The translations under genes were made by a program, and so were the position numbers. Of a DNA stretch of 64,000 nt, positions 8,643 through 47,639 are shown in pieces. Below the pieces are notes generated by a model. It was not told where the DNA came from, did not search any database, and worked only from the letters and a program-made list of their open reading frames with translations. Each line of letters starts with the position of its first letter. Within the stretch, counting starts at the first letter, position 1. The stretch is from the NCBI GenBank assembly GCA_964549935.1, contig CAZJVT010000002.1:121336-185335 (forward strand). Reading direction: 5' to 3'. Origin of the DNA: an uncultured Candidatus Saccharibacteria bacterium. GTDB lineage: Bacteria; Patescibacteriota; Minisyncoccia; UBA6257; 1-14-0-10-44-23.

Positions 8643-10370
8643 TTACAGTACCTCCTGCTGGTAACAGGCTTCGCAGTAGACTTTAAGGTTCCTGGCCGGA
8701 TCCCAGCCACTTTGCGTTTGCTTACCACAGAGACTACAAGATGTGACCCAGAGCTTGTAAGGTCGCTGCAATTCAAAACGAGCCCTTACGCGCTCTAAGG
8801 GATGCACTGTTGGCAGAGGCAGCTTTTTAGCACGATAAAAATCAAACTCAAATTGGGTCAGCCTAAATGGCTTACCGGATTGCTCGCAGATCAGTATTTT
8901 TTGCAGAATATCGCTGGGCACATTCGTGATGTCTTTTGGGATCGCCTCTCCACTCAAAACATTTGGCCCCGAAGGTGTGGTAACAATTTCAGCTTCTTCG
9001 TAATGCCAACCATTTGTTTTTATTTGTCCATCGGATAGAGGGAAAACTAGATTCGCATTTGAATCTTTGTAGGCGAAAGGATTTTCGGTAAGCGGAAAAA
9101 ATTCGCCGTACTCCCCGCGAGCGAGCATCGCTGTTTTTAGATCATCAACCAGCCTCCAGTATTCACTTTCTTCGTACTGCTTATTAAAAATACAAAACTT
9201 CTTATTTTTTAAAGCAATGCAGCCAAAAACATACTCGCAATTATTACATTCAGTGGAGTACTCTACATCATTTGAAACACGCACCATAACAGAAAATTTT
9301 GCGTTCTGGCATTTTGTTACCCCGGATGACTCATAAGCCTGGGATGAACCGCTCGAACCAAAAACATCCATCATCGTGTCGATGTTGTCCACATGCTGAA
9401 CGTACTTTAAGTCCTCTCCATTCACAATCTGGAAACAGTTTTTGCAGTTCTTTGTATGCCGCAATGTATTACCGGACGAGTTCTCGGTATATAAAGCGTC
9501 AACTGCCTTATGGATTGCTTTTTTGCATAACTCGCCGAAACGTTGTTCGTACTCCCGCAAAACATCTCTATCTCCTGTGTTGATTTCAGCCATCCTCTTT
9601 TGATACTCCTCTTTGGTCAGCTGTTCATTGAAAAAGCAATATTTTTTGTTACGCAAGTTAGTGCAACCAAAACAATTTGTGCAATTTTTGCAATCAAAAA
9701 GAAACCAGCTGTCTACGCAACTGATAGAGTCAGTGCAGAAAAAACAATTATATGACTGCTCAACAAGAGTGCACTCATAGCAGTTATCGCTCTCGAGGAG
9801 CCAGTTTGTATCAATTGAATTTTTTGAGCGAATTGGAATATAGCTGTATTGAATGTCCTCTGATTCGTAAGGAATCGAAACGTAATAGCAATTCTTTGCC
9901 TGCACTCCCGAAACTACATATTCACAATTAACGCTTTTTGGATCTTTACTAAGCGCTTGGCGTGGTGCCCGCTTACTAAGCGCGCTCCATTGTTCAAAAA
10001 ATGGAGCTTGCGGATCGAGTGGTTGGCCATACTCTGCCCCTTCCCAGCCGTCACCGTAATAGAAGGGGTCATCGAAAACAACTGCGGGGTTTTTAGCAGA
10101 ATAACAGGCCAGCATGCTTTCACTGTGGCCGGGCGCACTACATGGTCGACGATAAAACAGCGGAAGGAAGCTTACGCGATACCCCAGCCGCCGCTGCATG
10201 CGACAATTCGGACACAGTGTTGGCGGCGGCACTTTAAATTTCTTGTACCACTCAATGTCGTCAGCCTCAACTTTAAAAGTCGAAGAACACTGTCGACACC
10301 TGCGCTCGTGCGGCGCAAGCTCGCCAAGGATTTTTTTTATCGCTGCATCAAACTTCGGCGTTTTAGACAT
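8643..10370 (-). CDS. Large Cys-rich multi-zinc-ribbon protein with internal duplications. Function unknown.
   Basis: N-terminal ribbon C-x2-C...CP-x-C-R-x-QRR. Internal repeats NCxNCFGCTNLRNKKYCFFNEQ and ECNNCEYVFGCIALKNKKFCIFNKQ. C-terminal ribbon CSLCGKQTQSGWDPARNLKVYCEACYQQ. A paralog fragment lies at 1..217. Confidence 0.6.
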   Translation of the reverse strand: MSKTPKFDAAIKKILGELAPHERRCRQCSSTFKVEADDIEWYKKFKVPPPTLCPNCRMQRRLGYRVSFLPLFYRRPCSAPGHSESMLACYSAKNPAVVFDDPFYYGDGWEGAEYGQPLDPQAPFFEQWSALSKRAPRQALSKDPKSVNCEYVVSGVQAKNCYYVSIPYESEDIQYSYIPIRSKNSIDTNWLLESDNCYECTLVEQSYNCFFCTDSISCVDSWFLFDCKNCTNCFGCTNLRNKKYCFFNEQLTKEEYQKRMAEINTGDRDVLREYEQRFGELCKKAIHKAVDALYTENSSGNTLRHTKNCKNCFQIVNGEDLKYVQHVDNIDTMMDVFGSSGSSQAYESSGVTKCQNAKFSVMVRVSNDVEYSTECNNCEYVFGCIALKNKKFCIFNKQYEESEYWRLVDDLKTAMLARGEYGEFFPLTENPFAYKDSNANLVFPLSDGQIKTNGWHYEEAEIVTTPSGPNVLSGEAIPKDITNVPSDILQKILICEQSGKPFRLTQFEFDFYRAKKLPLPTVHPLERVRARFELQRPYKLWVTSCSLCGKQTQSGWDPARNLKVYCEACYQQEVL

Positions 10371-14159: not shown

Positions 14160-15221
14160 TTATTTAGCCATTGCCACGGCGTACTCGCCAGTCGGCATTC
14201 GCTTGAAATACTTTTTGTTCTGGAGGTTAAAGAGAATTGTCGTCTCTTTAAAGATTCGGTGCTTGAGCACTTTGGCGATCAAGTCCTTCGGCTTCATCGG
14301 ACCCTCACTCTGCAAAACGTGGAGCAAGATGTCGCGAATCGTACCGGCTGGAAGCGCATCGTGTTCGCGCAGGCTGTAGATACCGCGGCCAACGAGCAGG
14401 AAACGGCGGTCTTTGATGAGCTCGTTGTGAATAGTCTGGGTGTTAGTCTTGCGGCGTGGGCGCAAACGGCGAATCTCACCGGCGATTTCGTTAAAGTGGA
14501 GCGGCTTGCTCGCCTTTTTGAGAATCAAATAAATCCAGTCGCGAGAAACCTTCGGGCTTACCTCCGGCCACTCGGTCAAACCGAAGTCACCATACAAGTT
14601 GCTTCCGAACTTACGGCTGATATGCAAATAGTGACGAGCAACCTCGGCCTCAAGCTTGTGCAGCTCGCGAACTTCGTGGAAAAACTGTTCGAACTTTTTT
14701 TCGTTGATGGTCTCTCCTTTGCGCTCACGAAGGTGCTTAACCAGGGCGTCCAAAAACTCCTGCGCCTTCTGCTGGTGACCTTCAGAAAGGTGCCAGTGTG
14801 AGTTTAACTCCTCGTCCTCGCGGTGGTACAAAACTTCGCCGGAGATTTCAAGCAAAAAGCGAACCTGGTTGGCGAAGTTGACCGGCAAGTCCTTACCGCC
14901 ATCGGCAAAGTGCTTGAGGTCGGTCAGCAAGTGGTCCTCGCGGCGAACGCCACCGGTCTTTGTAAGCTCGCTGATAGCGTGTTTAACAAGCGCGGCGAGA
15001 TCTGAGCGCTGCATGTGCTTACGGACTTCGTTGATAGCTGAAGATTCAATCTGGCGGATGCGCTCACGGGTAACACCGAACGACTTACCAAGCTCGGCGA
15101 GGGTCTGTTCCTCTCCGGAATCCAGACCGTAACGCTTCGTCAGCACTTTGCGCTGGCGAGCATCAAGACCGGCAAAAAGTTGCTCAATAATCTGGGCTGT
15201 CGTTGGGTTGGTTTGTGTCAT
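14160..15221 (-). CDS. Sigma-70 region-4 domain protein (sigma-factor-like HTH DNA-binding protein)
   Basis: QRKVLTKRYGLDSGEEQTLAELGKSFGVTRERIRQIESSAI, a classic region 4.2 HTH. Confidence 0.6.
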   Translation of the reverse strand: MTQTNPTTAQIIEQLFAGLDARQRKVLTKRYGLDSGEEQTLAELGKSFGVTRERIRQIESSAINEVRKHMQRSDLAALVKHAISELTKTGGVRREDHLLTDLKHFADGGKDLPVNFANQVRFLLEISGEVLYHREDEELNSHWHLSEGHQQKAQEFLDALVKHLRERKGETINEKKFEQFFHEVRELHKLEAEVARHYLHISRKFGSNLYGDFGLTEWPEVSPKVSRDWIYLILKKASKPLHFNEIAGEIRRLRPRRKTNTQTIHNELIKDRRFLLVGRGIYSLREHDALPAGTIRDILLHVLQSEGPMKPKDLIAKVLKHRIFKETTILFNLQNKKYFKRMPTGEYAVAMAK

Positions 15222-15424
15222 GGGTTATAAAAAGCTATAAATTTGACAGTGTTGTATTGCTATTAAGGTAGCATTAATGGGATTTAATGTCAAACGCTAC
15301 CCCTTTCCGCTGCTCGAGCCACATGCAGTTTCTGCATTTGAATCGAGTGGCGGGCAGGAGCGTCGGTCTAAGACCGAGCTCCTGCGCCGTTTGCGACCTA
15401 GGCACCGGCTGAAACCGGTGATCC

Positions 15425-15991
15425 TCACTCTGCGTCATTGTGCTTGGCGAGGATCTGCCAGAGCACCTGCTCGATCGGACCGACCGAGTCCTTCGGGTCA
15501 GGATGAGCGCAGACGATGGGTGCATCGTTGGCCATCTTGTTTTCCCGGACGAGCCTCTTGAACGCCTTGCGACAGACACCGCAGGGCTCGAGCAACTCAG
15601 TCGGGACACCCGACTCGTTGTCGACTTGGATGTCGCCGACAACGCACCCGCCGATGATGTGGCGGTAGCCGGCACGCCACGCCTTGTGAATCGCGCGGCG
15701 CTCGGCGCAGCATTTCTTCCGCGGCTTCATCTCCTTGTGAGTGTGCCGCTTGATCTTCCTCCCGGCGACCTCGCCGCCGCTCTCGCAGAAACATTCATCC
15801 TTTTTGCGACAAGGACGCTTCATGTTTCCCGCGGAGAAGATCTGGAAGTCACCGCAGTCGTTTTCCGCCAAGAAGGCGGCGCCGACACAGAAACCGCGGT
15901 AACTATCCGCATCCTCGGCGTGTGCCACGCGCGCCGAGAGTATGAGGCCTTCCTTGCGAGCAAGGTAGGCAGCAAGCTTTCGGTCGTCCAT
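15425..15991 (-). CDS. CDA-fold cytidine/deoxycytidylate-type deaminase; high-GC cassette gene
   Basis: SYRGFCVGAAF...CCAERRAI...EPCGVCRKAF, i.e. C/H-A-E ... P-C-x2-C zinc motif. High GC. GGAGG ribosome-binding site 6 nt before the ATG. Confidence 0.55.
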   Translation of the reverse strand: MDDRKLAAYLARKEGLILSARVAHAEDADSYRGFCVGAAFLAENDCGDFQIFSAGNMKRPCRKKDECFCESGGEVAGRKIKRHTHKEMKPRKKCCAERRAIHKAWRAGYRHIIGGCVVGDIQVDNESGVPTELLEPCGVCRKAFKRLVRENKMANDAPIVCAHPDPKDSVGPIEQVLWQILAKHNDAE

Positions 15992-16041
15992 GGTGCACCT
16001 CCGAAAATGACCCGCAGAGTACGCCTCTGTGGTTAATGTAT

Positions 16042-16071
16042 ATTATATCACACAAATGCCTATTTTGTCAA
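16042..16071 (-). promoter_or_regulatory. Consensus sigma70-type promoter for the deaminase cassette
   Basis: Minus-strand sense TTGACA-18 nt-TATAAT, then about 45 nt of leader with GGAGG before the ATG at 15991. Confidence 0.55.
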
Positions 16072-16133
16072 TACCCCAGTACCAGAGCCTGCTGGCGCGG
16101 TACGGGGCTAAGGCTCAAAAAGTACATAACGAA

Positions 16134-16228
16134 AAAGCCCCCTCCAAAGGCGGGCAAGCCTGACGCGGGGCTTTAAGGATGCAGCAAGGGCAAAAAGCAA
16201 CCGGGCGGCCTACTGGCCGCCCGGTTGA
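16134..16228. repeat. U1 dispersed repeat module plus a 13-bp-stem hairpin that is the secDF terminator on the minus strand
   Basis: ccccctccaaaggcgggcaagcctgacgcggggctttaaggatgcagcaagggcaaaaagc, then caaccgggcggcc-tact-ggccgcccggttg. Minus-strand sense is hairpin followed by UUGCUUUUUGCCC. Confidence 0.6.
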
Positions 16229-16239
16229 AAATCCCCTAT

Positions 16240-20239: not shown

Positions 20240-20351
20240 AGCACATGGACTGGACATTTGTCTCAAAATAGTTTATTATCCTGCCTACGGTTTCGTTGGC
20301 ATTTTCGGCATGTGCCGAAGTGTTGCAACGAGCCAGACAAGGAGAGAAGCG

Positions 20352-20837
20352 ATGATGAAACGTTTCGGACCGCCCTACCTGACGAAAGGCTCCGATGGAC
20401 CGTTCGTTCTGGCGATGCAGATCGCCATCAAGGCCGCGATGATGCCGCACGAGGCGGCGCTCAACATCATCTGCGATGGCGAGTTCGGCGACATGACCGA
20501 GCTCGGCGTCAAGTGTCTCCAGTCCAACCTCGGCTTCGAGGGAAGCGGCGTCGACGGCTGCTTCGGGCCGAGGACCAGGGACGCGTTCTTCCAGAAGTAC
20601 GGGATCGACTTCAACTCGATGCCCTACGGCATCTTCGCCGGAGAGACCACCTGGTTCAACGGAGACAAGAACATGGGCGTCTGGACCGGCGAGATCGCGG
20701 AAGACCCGCGCCGGCCCTGCCGCTGCAGTGCCCCGTTCTTCCTCCACGACGAGGACGGGATTCCGGATCAGTGCTCGGGGTTCAAGGAGCCCGAGCAGGC
20801 CGCCACCTCCGGCAGCACCAACTGCGGGGGTCTGTAG
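20352..20837 (+). CDS. Peptidoglycan-binding-domain (PG_binding_1-like) protein; high-GC cassette gene
   Basis: AAGGAGAG ribosome-binding site then ATGATG. Motif DGEFGDMTELGVKCLQSNLGFEGSGVDGCFGPRTRDAFFQKYG. GC much higher than its flanks. Start refined from the track ORF 20310. Confidence 0.55.
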   Translation: MMKRFGPPYLTKGSDGPFVLAMQIAIKAAMMPHEAALNIICDGEFGDMTELGVKCLQSNLGFEGSGVDGCFGPRTRDAFFQKYGIDFNSMPYGIFAGETTWFNGDKNMGVWTGEIAEDPRRPCRCSAPFFLHDEDGIPDQCSGFKEPEQAATSGSTNCGGL

Positions 20838-20974
20838 GCCATGGAGGCGCTCGAGAGGAACCCCGACCCGCCTCCCGGCGGTCATGACCACTCGACGGGC
20901 AAGCACGTGAACTAGCCCGTCTCCAACGCCCGGCGCCACGGCAGCGCAAGCTGTCGTGCGCGCCGGGCCGCAAT

Positions 20975-21235
20975 TCGCCCCTACCTCGCCCAACCGTGAG
21001 GAGGGGCGTCGTAGTTTTTGCCCTTACTGCATCCCTAAAGCCCCGCGTCAGGGGCTTATATAATGATCAGTAAGGGCACACCCGGCGATTATGTATTCAT
21101 AAGCGGTAAGGGTGCTTCAAATAGTTTGCATCCTTAAGCGCCGCTTCAGGCGCTTTTTAAATTGAGGAGCGAGGAGCGCACCCGACGATTGCGTACTCGC
21201 AATCGGAAAGGGTGTTTCCATGCCCACGTACTCCG
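20975..21235. repeat. Composite cassette-end repeat: hairpin, TTTTTGCCC, U1 (reversed), U2, U3, U2
   Basis: tttttgcccttactgcatccctaaagccccgcgtcaggggctt...gcacacccggcgattatgtattcataagcggtaagggtg...gcatccttaagcgccgcttcaggcgcttttt...gcgcacccgacgattgcgtactcgcaatcggaaagggtgtttcc. The modules recur at 16134, 43864, 45971 and 46755. Confidence 0.6.
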
Positions 21236-27232: not shown

Positions 27233-27670
27233 TCACTCGGGAACGAGCCTGGTGAAGTGGCCGTCGGAGGCGACGACGCCTTCGGGGCGAAGCGCCAGAA
27301 CCCAGTCGACGACCCTGATGAAGACCGGGAACTCTTCCCATGCCTGCGAGAAGAGTCTGTGTCTATACCAGAGGTCAACGATCACGTAGTGACAGGAAAC
27401 GGATGCCGCGGACTTGTAGGAATACGGATGCTCTTTGGTCCCGTACCCTACGACATAGTTCACTTGATCACCCCCGCTGTATGGCCGCGAGTCATACCGT
27501 CCATCGTCCGGGTTCGGTTCGAGGACGGTGATGCCGTCTTCCTTGGAGAGGTGGATCGGACCGGCCTTGCGCCGGGCTTCAGCGAACGAGAAGTCTCTAC
27601 TCATGTCTCCCTCCCGGAGCATGGCCGGACAATACCGGCATTGGTGTTTTCTACCCGAATTTGGGTGCAT
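27233..27670 (-). CDS. Hypothetical protein; high-GC cassette gene, leaderless
   Basis: High-GC ORF MHPNSGRKHQCRYCP... directly downstream of a perfect promoter. Terminator hairpin cccgacac...gtgtcggg plus T-tract at 27164-27215. Confidence 0.5.
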   Translation of the reverse strand: MHPNSGRKHQCRYCPAMLREGDMSRDFSFAEARRKAGPIHLSKEDGITVLEPNPDDGRYDSRPYSGGDQVNYVVGYGTKEHPYSYKSAASVSCHYVIVDLWYRHRLFSQAWEEFPVFIRVVDWVLALRPEGVVASDGHFTRLVPE

Positions 27671-27672
27671 AT

Positions 27673-27701
27673 ATTATACACCCATTTATCTATTTTGTCA
27701 A
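27673..27701 (-). promoter_or_regulatory. Consensus promoter TTGACA-17-TATAAT, with the -10 element 2 nt from the ATG (leaderless)
   Basis: Minus-strand sense TTGACAaaatagataaatgggtgTATAATatATG. It shares the TTGACAAAATAG -35 context with the promoter at 16042..16071. Confidence 0.55.
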
Positions 27702-27742
27702 TCCCCCTGCCCTAAGTTTTCTTTTTCTAGTAAACTAGATAC

Positions 27743-46131: not shown

Positions 46132-46368
46132 CGAAAGGGGCCGAGAGACTGCCACTTTCGTGGTACCTCGAGGCCCCTTCATTGCTTGCCCGGCTCCGCG
46201 CGGGTGTTGTCCCCGCGCGGAGGCCGATATTGTCGCGACGCTAGCAGCGTCGCGGCGGACGGTGGCCGCTCGGCCGCATGTTGGCCGGCGGCTTGCCACG
46301 AGGGTGCTGTGCGCCCCCGTGCTGGTGACCACGCCTGACTGCCGCCACCTTGAAGACCTTGTTGGCCC

Positions 46369-46590
46369 TCACGGCTGCATCCCCATGTAGGGGGCGCGAC
46401 CGACGATCTTGCTCTGGTTCGTCGGCGGCGGGAGTTTCCCGTTCGGCGAGATGAAGCTCTGAGCTCCCTTGTGCCACGCCCCGCCGTGGGGTCGGAGGTC
46501 CGACACCGGCGTCTCATCGAGCACTTGATGGGCCTGTGCCGCCTCGGAACGCCTTGCCCGCGACGATCGCGGACGTCCTTTACTGCTCAT
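46369..46590 (-). CDS. Hypothetical small protein; high-GC cassette gene
   Basis: GGGAGG ribosome-binding site 8 nt before the ATG. Promoter-like TTGATT-16-TATAGT at 46724-46751. Structured leader. The reading frame is uncertain in a very GC-rich region. Confidence 0.35.
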   Translation of the reverse strand: MSSKGRPRSSRARRSEAAQAHQVLDETPVSDLRPHGGAWHKGAQSFISPNGKLPPPTNQSKIVGRAPYMGMQP

Positions 46591-46754
46591 CCGGCGCCTC
46601 CCTGATCGAATCCCTTCCTCGCCATCGACCCCCCAAGGTCGGAGCGGGAGTTTTATCCTCGCCTAAAAGACAAAACTCCAGCTCCGATTCCTAGTGGAAT
46701 GAGTGCGAAAGAAGATTACAGAAACTATACACCTGACGCAATAAAAATCAATTA

Positions 46755-46797
46755 AAGCCCCTGGCCCGCGCTTTAAGGATGCAGCAAGGGCAAAACA
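46755..46797. repeat. U1 repeat module
   Basis: aagcccctggcccgcgctttaaggatgcagcaagggcaaaacac. The terminator hairpin ggggtcgt...acgacccc follows immediately. Confidence 0.5.
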
Positions 46798-46857
46798 CTA
46801 AGGGGTCGTTGACACCTCAGTGTACGACCCCCTGATTGCTCCTCCCTGACCTTGCGG

Positions 46858-47016
46858 TCAAATCTTCGCCAAACGGGCGATGATGTCCTTGTCCTCGGAT
46901 ACTTCGCCGAGGGCCTCCTCCGTTTCTTCTGCGGGCGCCATGATAGTCACCCGCAGCTCGGGGCAGAAGTACCCCGCCGAGCAGACCGGACAGACACGGT
47001 TGTCTTCGTCCATCAT
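46858..47016 (-). CDS. Small zinc-ribbon protein (52 aa), absent from the ORF track
   Basis: Ribosome-binding site GGAAGGAGGG then ATGATG; MMDEDNRVCPVCSAGYFCPELRVTIMAPAEETEEALGEVSEDKDIIARLAKI; TGA stop. A terminator and U1 module lie downstream. Confidence 0.45.
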   Translation of the reverse strand: MMDEDNRVCPVCSAGYFCPELRVTIMAPAEETEEALGEVSEDKDIIARLAKI

Positions 47017-47252
47017 CTTCCCTCCTTCCCGCCCCGCGCGCGAAGCGCGCGGGGCCGTGACTACTGATCAGTACCGCGGTTCGAACCCCGCGAACTTGCG
47101 CTGCGGATCACGCAGCACTTCGTAGATCGCCGGCGGCCCCTTGCGAGGCGGCACGATGACCGGACTTCCGGTGACCGTCTTCGGCGACGAAGCCGGCGAG
47201 ATGGGCTGCCCACCCACCGGCACTCCCTTGAGCGACACTCCGATGGTGCGCT

Positions 47253-47639
47253 TCACGAGCGCACCGTCTGAAAGGTCCGGGTCGCGGTCGTGTCGTCGTC
47301 GCATTCGCCCATTGCGCGGCACTGCTCCACCGCGGCATGGAAACGACTGAGCGCGAGCTTCCGCATCTTCTCGCGATAGGCCTTGGGCGAGACGAGCTGG
47401 TCCGGATCGACTCCGGCCACCGTCTTCTCGTCGTAGAAGACATGCTCGTCTTCCGTAGCGAACTCGACCATGCGCCCCGTGGGACGCGTGAACGGCGTCT
47501 TCCGTTCTTCGAGCACATCGTTCGGCAGATCGGCATCGCCGACCTCGCAGCAGTCGGCCCTTCCGCGGCCGACCAGCGACTCCGAGCCCGGGTCCTTCCC
47601 GCCACCCAGAGTCACTGCCAGAACCAAGAAAATGCTCAT
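47253..47639 (-). CDS. Small secreted protein (signal peptide); high-GC cassette gene
   Basis: GAGGAGG ribosome-binding site 4 nt before the ATG; MSIFLVLAVTLGGG...; promoter TTGACT-17-TATAAC at 47784-47812. Confidence 0.45.
   Translation of the reverse strand: MSIFLVLAVTLGGGKDPGSESLVGRGRADCCEVGDADLPNDVLEERKTPFTRPTGRMVEFATEDEHVFYDEKTVAGVDPDQLVSPKAYREKMRKLALSRFHAAVEQCRAMGECDDDTTATRTFQTVRS

Follow-up and report, generated by a model that had tools for sequence, protein, structure and literature searches.

The deaminase gene and its locus

The stretch of DNA analyzed in this work (64,000 nucleotides from an uncultured Candidatus Saccharibacteria bacterium, referred to as a whole as the window) contains, between secF and a gene encoding a sigma-like protein, a gene for a zinc deaminase with the cytidine deaminase (CDA) fold. 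This gene (15425..15991, - strand) starts with ATG and encodes a protein of 188 aa, a member of a subfamily resembling the tetrameric CDAs; no further CDA-fold open reading frame (ORF) was found in the 64-kb window. The slot occupied by the gene is bounded upstream by the secF terminator, a 13-bp perfect GC-rich stem followed by a T-run (16198..16227, -), and downstream by the sigma-like gene (14160..15221, -), whose 353-aa product carries Sigma70_r4 and HARE-HTH domains and which has its own promoter and stands outside the deaminase cassette.

A zinc-deaminase signature had been noticed in the 188-aa ORF by the first-pass annotation, and both of its motifs were located: CCAERRAI at residues 94-101 and EPCGVCRKAF at residues 135-144. 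The Pfam match to PF00383 (dCMP_cyt_deam_1; E 1e-6, 29 bits) was above the gathering score of 25. In an alignment of 160 family members, C95-A96-E97 (15701..15709, -) corresponded to zinc ligand 1 and the catalytic glutamate, and P136-C137-G-V-C140 (15572..15586, -), followed by R141, to zinc ligands 2 and 3. E97 and N56 were found in all 160 members, C137 and C140 in 159 each, and R141 in 146. Position 95 was occupied by Cys in 145 sequences and by His in the other 15, and A96 was kept in 149. The pocket elements F-x-V-G-A-A and G-x-N were also present, with Phe34 and Asn56 retained. Catalytic activity of the predicted protein is very likely, as the CDA fold is intact along with the three zinc-binding Cys, the catalytic Glu and the Asn of the nucleoside pocket.

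The structure of the protein was modeled with AlphaFold2 (AF2) using an alignment of 49 sequences (mean pLDDT 89, pTM 0.82); a run with only two sequences was discarded as poor (pLDDT 53). The deaminase fold filled the whole 188-aa protein in the model, with helix 1 beginning at residue 3, and strands 4 and 5 (E158-162 and E173-176) formed a hairpin with no helix between them. When this model was compared with the PDB by Foldseek, the top 41 matches were all cytidine deaminases, including 1r5t, 1zab, 2fr5 and 1jtk, with E values from 1e-8 to 1e-5 and target TM scores of 0.68-0.81. Yeast CDD1 and the mouse, human, Bacillus subtilis and mycobacterial homotetrameric enzymes were among them. Blasticidin-S deaminase (BSD) appeared as a second structural tier, after about 40 CDA chains (E 5e-5 vs. 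8e-9). By sequence, the best PDB match was once again a cytidine deaminase, that of mouse (E 6e-5).

A subfamily distinct from canonical cytidine deaminase

The CDD/CDA clade of deaminases has been described as having C[H]AE and PCxxCR motifs and a C-terminal hairpin (Iyer et al., 2011; PMC3239186). All of these traits were found in the window protein, the antiparallel hairpin of strands 4 and 5 being seen in the AF2 model. The Glu at the end of strand 5 (ELLP region) was Q179 in the window protein; this position was E in 73, Q in 26 and D in 18 family members and E in seven of eight canonical Cdd sequences, in a short C-terminal region whose alignment is uncertain. The homotetrameric Cdd enzymes (TIGR01354; B. 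subtilis, human, mouse, yeast CDD1) are likewise small and stand-alone, with the same fold and C-terminal hairpin topology, and share with the window protein the C-A-E, P-C-x-x-C-R, F-x-V-G-A-A and G-x-N elements. The window protein differs from them by Lys58, Arg32, Lys93, His184, a Q/D loop and a Cys/His/Lys insert of 26-28 aa, and its gene is accessory, not core, in distribution.

The NCBIfam cytidine-deaminase equivalogs (TIGR01354, NF004064, NF009076 and others) matched the protein with scores of 12-26 bits, against cutoffs of 74-216 (25.7/113.65, 20.6/74, 23/216, 17.9/129 and 12.1/131). The earlier proposal that this gene is not a housekeeping cdd was borne out, the equivalog scores being far under the cutoffs, the subfamily being separate by profile score and the gene being missing from relatives. 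A plain housekeeping cdd is poorly supported: the gene fails the equivalog cutoffs and the N-x-E comparison described below, and is dispensable in close relatives. Judged from sequence and model, the deaminase is a CDA-fold zinc enzyme but not a canonical Cdd.

A word-indexed search of 5.8 billion cluster representatives returned only the deaminase itself and one protein of equal length and 54% identity (P0002), and an exhaustive HMMER search of 1.84 billion representatives returned 244 clusters (at 50% identity) at E 1e-3 or better. The members were stand-alone proteins of approximately 150-270 aa. In a search with the family profile they scored 104-215 bits, the window protein 173 and canonical Cdd at most 79. 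Few members carried a source name: three of these names read "cytidine deaminase" (JGI), one of these being P0164, a canonical-type match (≤79 bits), and one member from Candidatus Uhrbacteria was named "hypothetical protein". All of the members with a known context or source name came from genomes of the Candidate Phyla Radiation (CPR)/Patescibacteria type. No characterized member of the family was found in Pfam, NCBIfam, the PDB or the literature searched.

The family motifs were S-Y-R-x-F-x-V-G, G-x-N-x-K, K-x-C-A-E, Q-x-D-x-x-S-G, T-L-H-P-C-x-x-C-R and E-L-L-x-x-H, and the window protein had all of the motif residues except H135 (E), T133 (L) and E179 (Q). Residues were compared in an alignment of 168 sequences, consisting of the 160 family members and eight canonical sequences. 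In solved CDAs the Glu of the N-x-E element hydrogen-bonds the ribose 3'-OH of the nucleoside. This Glu, present in 8/8 canonical sequences, was replaced by Lys (Lys58) in 128/160 family members, and the same change was seen in the HMMER pairwise alignment of N56-M-K58 with the N-I-E of mouse CDA. Other changes with respect to canonical Cdd were Ser to Arg32 (151/160), Thr to Lys93 (111/160) and the cap Phe to His184 (110/160), and an extra loop of about eight residues with conserved Q122 and D124 preceded the PCxxC motif. Because Lys58 replaces the ribose Glu, and Arg32, Lys93 and Q122-x-D124 are gained, the substrate is probably not plain cytidine or deoxycytidine. From the new basic residues by the sugar side of the pocket we infer a substrate with an anionic group. 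The family, as defined by these alignments, is a subfamily on the tetrameric-CDA scaffold, separate from canonical Cdd and with an altered sugar pocket.

The genomic contexts of other members lean toward nucleotide housekeeping: one gene was beside DHFR, with DCD and ThyA nearby, and another was among NUDIX, Ham1, HAD and kinase genes. A third context was uninformative, as was that of P0013, the nearest relative without the insert, which is encoded on a 1.7-kb contig.

The Cys/His/Lys-rich insert

The Cys/Lys-rich insertion that the first-pass annotation had placed between the VGAA and CAE elements was confirmed. It comprises residues 59-93 (15713..15817, -), lies between strand 2 and the CAE helix, and represents a net gain of 26-28 aa: the segment from Asn56 to Cys95 has 38 aa in the window protein and 36 in P0002, compared with 10 in canonical Cdd and in 95/160 family members. 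This segment contains 15 Lys/Arg residues in the window protein. C61, C67, C69, H83, H85 and C94 were common to the window protein and P0002, the middle of the loop not being conserved. The insert was present in only these two sequences among approximately 15 billion proteins, and a Pfam search with the insert alone gave no match. It was also the only poorly modeled part of the structure (residues 60-92; pLDDT 52-57 in the insert, above 90 elsewhere). A second zinc site within the insert is plausible from the shared Cys and His residues. In tetrameric CDAs the loop at this position contributes to the active site of the neighboring subunit, and the insert would therefore be well placed to alter substrate access.

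Inserts are also known from other deaminases. The DYW deaminases, which belong to the division with the C-terminal hairpin, carry an insert with a basic residue between strand 2 and helix 2 (Table 1 of PMC3239186), the same topological position as that of the window protein, but have an HxE(K) motif and an architecture linked to PPR, and belong to another sequence family; no sequence or structure match to them was obtained here. The LmjF36.5940-like proteins (PF14421) are another branch derived from CDD/CDA. In the kinetoplastid members of this branch the deaminase domain harbors a Zn-chelating insert, and a role in nucleic-acid editing is suspected (PMC3239186). The position of that insert, between strands 1 and 2, is not the one seen in the window protein (strand 2 to helix 2). 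The LmjF36.5940-like proteins have CCCH or Rossmann fusions and are mostly eukaryotic, although a Bdellovibrio member is listed (PMC3239186). Three of 49 family members weakly matched PF14421, and the window protein did not match it. Finally, TrcP, a tRNA C-to-U editor of Vibrio cholerae, has a three-Cys/Glu site similar to CDA/BSD that is interrupted by a basic module, through which the RNA substrate is bound (PMC9553926). The TrcP insert differs in being a three-helix module of about 135 aa in a protein with a pseudouridine synthase fusion, and no sequence relation to the window protein was detectable.

The slot between secF and the sigma-like gene in relatives

P0002 is encoded at a locus (L002) of a metagenome-assembled genome labeled uncultured Candidatus Saccharibacteria, where the gene order is that of the window: secD, secF, deaminase, sigma-like gene, DUF8128 and genes for ATPases resembling those of type IV secretion systems (T4SS). 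The neighbors of the deaminase were 61-90% identical between the two loci (SecD 84, SecF 78, sigma-like protein 90, DUF8128 87), as against 54% for the deaminase itself. The nonsynonymous divergence (dN) of the deaminase was 0.39 and that of its neighbors 0.07-0.24, with the synonymous divergence (dS) saturated in every gene of the block. A dN of 0.39 with saturated dS indicates that the deaminase is constrained overall.

A search for related loci with the two-sequence alignment returned the L002 genome only. The content of the slot in relatives was read through orthologues of the sigma-like gene, which adjoins secF also in relatives without a deaminase. The closest named homologues of the sigma-like protein were from Candidatus Harrisonbacteria (61-63% identity), which leaves CPR/Patescibacteria as the only safe placement of the source organism; a metagenome scan with this protein gave two weak, irrelevant matches. 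At L002 (sigma-like protein 90% identical to that of the window) the slot holds the 188-aa deaminase with insert, 54% identical to that of the window. At L020 (87%) it holds a 386-aa protein, at L015 (85%) a methyltransferase and a 201-aa family member with a CGE motif, and at L018/L019 (84%) a 178-aa family member. The slot was empty at L021/L022 (84%), L016 (80%) and L017 (73%). The description of the deaminase as an accessory gene was thus supported, the slot being empty in L016, L017 and L021/L022 and otherwise filled in L015, L018 and L020.

The L015 protein was assigned to the family by hhalign with a probability of 99.9% and had 29% identity with the window protein; that of L018/L019 shared 35% of its residues with the window protein and 46% with the L015 protein. 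The methyltransferase gene of L015 (3027-3902, -), which lies beside the deaminase on the opposite strand, encodes a class-I S-adenosylmethionine-dependent enzyme (Methyltransf_11/25). The 386-aa gene of L020 (136-1296) is directly upstream of the sigma-like gene, on a contig that stops short of secF. Its product is an internal duplication (blastp between the halves, E 3e-9), with C-S-E...L-C-E-L-C-R in the first half and C-A-E...L-C-E-A-D in the second. A tandem CDA fold of great divergence is probable for this protein, although hhalign gave a probability of only 6% and no Pfam or PDB match was found. In a single neighbor-joining tree of the family, which is rough and was taken as a hint only, the window and L002 deaminases were sisters, as were those of L015 and L018, and the two pairs were not neighbors of each other. 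Only short chance matches turned up when the flanks of the cassette were searched for direct repeats that might point to transposition.

Elsewhere in the syntenic region, a 575-aa ORF of GC 0.44 (8643-10370, -) was found between an M17 peptidase gene and a T4SS-like ATPase gene. It has a C-terminal treble-clef zinc finger (zf_Tbcl_2, just under the cutoff) and is missing from the syntenic region of L002.

Conserved expression signals and RNA hairpins

The deaminase gene is preceded by the sigma-70 consensus promoter TTGACAAAATAGGCATTTGTGTGATATAAT (16042..16071, -), a 12/12 match of the form TTGACA-18-TATAAT with a TG extension; three such consensus sites occurred in the 64 kb and none in shuffled sequences. 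The promoter had already been proposed in the first-pass annotation and is conserved in relatives: it was kept upstream of the slot deaminases of L002, L015 and L020, and L018 retains the -10 region and the leader. The -10 region TATAATATA was common to the slot genes of L002, L015, L018 and L020, and the TTGACA -35 element to those of L002, L015 and L020.

The leader of the relatives consists of two hairpins, in the arrangement ACCCA-P1-GGGCGG-P2-CCA, upstream of the slot deaminases (L002 2570-2640; L015 4002-4072; L018 284-352; L020 32-100). The window copy keeps P1 (CAGAG-GCGTA-CTCTG; 16015..16029, -), a few nucleotides past the inferred transcription start, and is without P2. Compensatory changes were found in 6/18 pairs of P1 and P2 (L002, L015 and L018). 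A Shine-Dalgarno sequence, GGAGG (15998..16002, -), lies 6 nt ahead of the ATG, with GAGGAGG or GGGAGG at the same place in L002, L015 and L018.

Three hairpins occupy the approximately 200 nt downstream of the deaminase (-70 kcal/mol; for the 146-nt 3' region, z = -5.4 vs. shuffles). The first (CACCGG-TTTCAG-CCGGTG; 15403..15420, -) lies 5 nt past the stop codon and is not in L002. The second, of about 14 bp with one bulge (15354..15385, -), corresponds to the hairpin terminator formerly drawn at 15355-15392; the hairpin exists, but the label of terminator is unproven, since no T-run follows, and the terminator scan did not call it. Its stem differs in sequence in L002 yet still pairs, through compensatory changes. 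The third is an imperfect hairpin of 47 nt, CCGCCACTCGATTCAAATGCA..TGCATGTGGCTCGAGC (15307..15353, -), between the deaminase and the sigma-like gene, with a counterpart at about 3262-3320 of L002. Its stem was nearly identical in L002, with two substitutions near the 3' end and a different loop, while the flanking proteins of the two loci differ by 10-46%. Possible roles of this element include those of a small RNA, a binding site for a protein and an unusual terminator. The leader and the 3' hairpins were unmatched in Rfam searches of the locus (E ≤1), the whole window (gathering threshold) and L002, L015 and L018. Taken together, the predicted consensus promoter, 5' stem-loop, strong ribosome-binding site and 3' hairpins make the deaminase gene a self-contained unit. 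The slot ORF has either been replaced within conserved expression signals or has diverged past recognition.

At the upstream boundary, the CCGGGCGGCCAGTAGGCCGCCCGG hairpin after secF was also found in L002 and L015. Between this terminator and the promoter of the deaminase, the window has about 125 extra nt (16072-16197, -) without counterpart in L002, among them a second hairpin with a T-run (16137-16151). Additionally, a second unit similar to the deaminase cassette was detected at 27233-27701 (-). Its perfect promoter, TTGACAAAATAG...TATAATATA (27673-27701), has both ends in common with the deaminase promoter. A short hairpin leader and a GGGAGG ribosome-binding site come next, then a 123-aa ORF (27233-27604) without a Pfam match, in a stretch of raised GC (0.564 over 27257-27715), and finally a hairpin with a T-run. 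To judge by this second unit, strongly promoted accessory genes may form a class of their own in the genome.

Base composition of the slot genes

The deaminase gene had a GC content of 0.61 and a GC content at third codon positions (GC3) of 0.77, compared with a window GC of 0.509 and gene-level means in the window of 0.517 ± 0.051 (GC) and 0.575 ± 0.078 (GC3). About half of the GC excess came from the amino-acid composition, since a value of 0.556 would be expected for this protein under host codon usage. The slot deaminases were GC-rich in every lineage (GC 0.54-0.62 and GC3 0.60-0.80, in loci of GC 0.45-0.51), the extreme being L018, with a GC3 of 0.80 next to a gene of 0.44. In two of the three unrelated family members examined, GC was 0.08-0.11 over that of the surroundings, so that slot or family deaminases were compositionally deviant at 6/7 loci examined.

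The high GC is not a leftover of one ancient transfer, because dS is saturated; to persist, it must either be imported repeatedly from a pool richer in GC or be selected for at the sequence level. The gene had previously been called compositionally foreign. Its GC and GC3 do deviate from the window, but "recently foreign" is too simple, since the gene is syntenic and GC-rich in L002, where the flanking proteins are only 78-90% identical. High-expression codon bias was rejected as the sole cause of the GC3, which was 0.61 in L21 and 0.66 in EF-P against 0.77 in the deaminase. Two islands of the window (GC 0.51) were GC-richer than the deaminase, at 20400-21000 (0.665) and 46200-47400 (0.62-0.65). 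The best ORF of the first (20310-20837, +) gave only sub-threshold matches to peptidoglycan-binding domains, and the ORFs of the second had no Pfam match.

Toxin and defense genes

The suggestion that the deaminase might be a toxin found no support: no delivery region, immunity ORF or defense or phage match was found, and the structural neighbors are metabolic enzymes. The protein is a bare 188-aa deaminase domain with no delivery or trafficking region. No candidate for a cognate immunity gene, for which the first-pass annotation had proposed a search, adjoins it, the 200 nt downstream being non-coding hairpins followed by the conserved sigma-like gene. The window protein and three slot homologues had no match in PADLOC-DB v2 at E ≤1, the four slot deaminases had none in PHROGs, and nothing was found among the BFVD viral structures at E 1e-3 or better. 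No toxin deaminase was among the top 50 structural matches listed by Foldseek, all of which were CDA or BSD. The polymorphic-toxin deaminases (DddA, SsdA, SCP1.201, YwqJ) are also small zinc domains, often fast-evolving and compositionally deviant, but they are C-terminal domains of large secreted proteins accompanied by an immunity gene, and the window protein has neither of these features.

Proposed function

We favor, with a probability of roughly 0.45, a function as an accessory cytoplasmic deaminase acting on cytosine substrates that are anionic (phosphorylated or carboxylated) or otherwise non-standard, with a role of the insert as a substrate-gating, probably zinc-binding module. The protein would be a zinc-dependent hydrolytic cytosine deaminase of the cytoplasm, built on the homotetrameric cytidine-deaminase scaffold. 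Its likelier substrates would be nucleotides of the CMP/dCMP type or a carboxylated or modified nucleoside; alternatively, a nucleic-acid strand scavenged from the host or the environment may serve. The insert, with its six conserved Cys/His and its many Lys/Arg, would probably form a small basic second-zinc module that gates or extends substrate recognition, in the loop that in tetrameric CDAs extends into the active site of the neighboring subunit. A dispensable, quickly turned-over gene would suit accessory salvage or detoxification tuned to local substrates, not a core role. Several points weigh against this proposal. The insert was modeled at low confidence, so that zinc binding is a conjecture; the argument from the Lys-for-Glu change depends on homology with solved CDAs and not on coordinates; and the genomic contexts of the other members form no consistent operons. 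Moreover, the fast divergence (54% vs. 78-90% for the flanks), the patchiness and the lasting high GC3 are unusual for a metabolic enzyme, and fast divergence, patchy presence and high GC3 would also fit a conflict gene.

Such a conflict gene, the main rival to the proposal, could be a nucleic-acid deaminase in which the basic Cys/His insert binds single-stranded DNA or RNA and phage or host nucleic acids or tRNA are edited, an arms race being the driver of the diversification of the slot gene. No gene of the syntenic block evolves faster than the deaminase (dN 0.39 vs. 0.07-0.24; 54% vs. 61-90% identity), close relatives differ in what the slot contains, and in the tree the window/L002 pair of deaminases is not placed next to the L015/L018 pair. 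The insert sits at the strand 2/helix 2 position of the RNA-editing DYW deaminases (Iyer et al., 2011; PMC3239186), Zn-chelating inserts are found in the LmjF36.5940-like CDA relatives (PMC3239186), and TrcP is a case of a CDA-type domain with an inserted basic module that is able to edit tRNA (PMC9553926). The pocket is lined by conserved Lys and Arg, and yeast CDD1, the top structural match, was deposited as an "orphan C to U editase". We nevertheless regard this explanation as unlikely, given that the closed architecture of tetrameric CDAs, with its C-terminal cap (H184 in place of Phe), normally excludes polynucleotides, that the insert is missing from most family members, and that no nucleic-acid-binding domain, defense-island context, or PADLOC or PHROG match was found. 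An unrestrained DNA mutator under a constitutive consensus promoter would also harm its own cell. A broader form of the same idea, in which the secF/sigma-like slot of one CPR clade would be a dedicated, rapidly diversifying deaminase locus, with interchangeable CDA-fold enzymes engaged in nucleic-acid or nucleotide-pool conflict with phages or the host cell, is distinctly improbable. The slot enzymes under the conserved promoter and leader do include insert-bearing, insert-free and probable tandem-domain versions. If this were true, the smallest deaminase scaffold would carry, in the insert, a new zinc-binding module for the recognition of nucleic acids, possibly with regulation of the slot deaminase by the RNA structures that flank it.

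At the other extreme, the gene might encode an ordinary cytidine/deoxycytidine deaminase of pyrimidine salvage, a very divergent CPR orthologue of cdd whose insert and fast evolution reflect neutral drift within a reduced genome. CPR bacteria depend on salvage, the NCBIfam and PDB matches are all cytidine deaminases, the catalytic set, Asn56 and Phe34 are retained, some members were named "cytidine deaminase" by JGI and one has a DHFR, DCD and ThyA neighborhood. This option appears doubtful in view of the Glu to Lys replacement in 128/160 members (Glu in 8/8 canonical sequences), the scores far under every equivalog cutoff, the absence of the gene from several close relatives and the high GC3 that endures despite saturated dS; the six Cys/His of the insert, kept at an overall identity of 54%, are contrary to drift. 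BSD offers a different model, the detoxification of cytosine-nucleoside antibiotics or toxic analogues by a resistance gene exchanged among CPR bacteria. The two proteins are alike in their CDA-derived tetrameric scaffold and three-Cys zinc site, BSD acts on a non-ribose cytosine nucleoside and is likewise not known to have the ribose-binding Glu, and hexuronic-acid nucleosides might be bound through pairing of their carboxylate with a Lys at this site. The accessory, patchy and strongly promoted nature of the gene, with its deviant composition at 6/7 loci, and the rank of BSD as second structural neighbor would also agree. However, canonical CDAs outrank BSD in both sequence and structure searches, and the Q-x-D loop and the basic residues are not BSD features. 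With no antibiotic-related neighbors seen, no experimental or ecological link, and a diversity of 244 clusters that exceeds the expectation for resistance to one drug, a role of this kind has only a slender chance of being correct. Lastly, the structured RNA flanking the ORF, with covariation in the leader stems and one 3' hairpin, recalls AvcD, a deaminase held in check by the small RNA AvcI (PMC10511110). In an RNA-restrained defense of this sort (a type III toxin-antitoxin system), the leader or 3' hairpins would be the antitoxin RNA and dCTP/dCMP would be converted on phage infection, for which a pocket suited to anionic substrates at an accessory and variable locus would be appropriate. 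The absence of a PADLOC match, the loss of leader hairpin P2 in the window copy and the simpler role of 5' stem-loops as mRNA stabilizers make this scenario very improbable indeed. AvcD is, furthermore, a protein of the dCMP-deaminase type, of a different fold division, with an additional N-terminal NTPase domain.

Significance

Base editors, as well as several immune and toxin systems, derive from enzymes of the CDA fold. With its compact size (150-190 aa) and rewired sugar pocket, the present family would be a clear candidate for new substrate specificities, and it contains a two-member sub-branch with a putative extra zinc module at the entrance of the active site. In addition, the locus provides a clean natural case of gene variability beneath conserved expression signals, with a persistently high GC3. 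If the substrate proved to be plain cytidine, this would be a routine divergent enzyme. Since the members are seen in CPR-type genomes reliant on scavenged nucleotides, the identity of the substrate would fill a gap in the salvage map of these bacteria.

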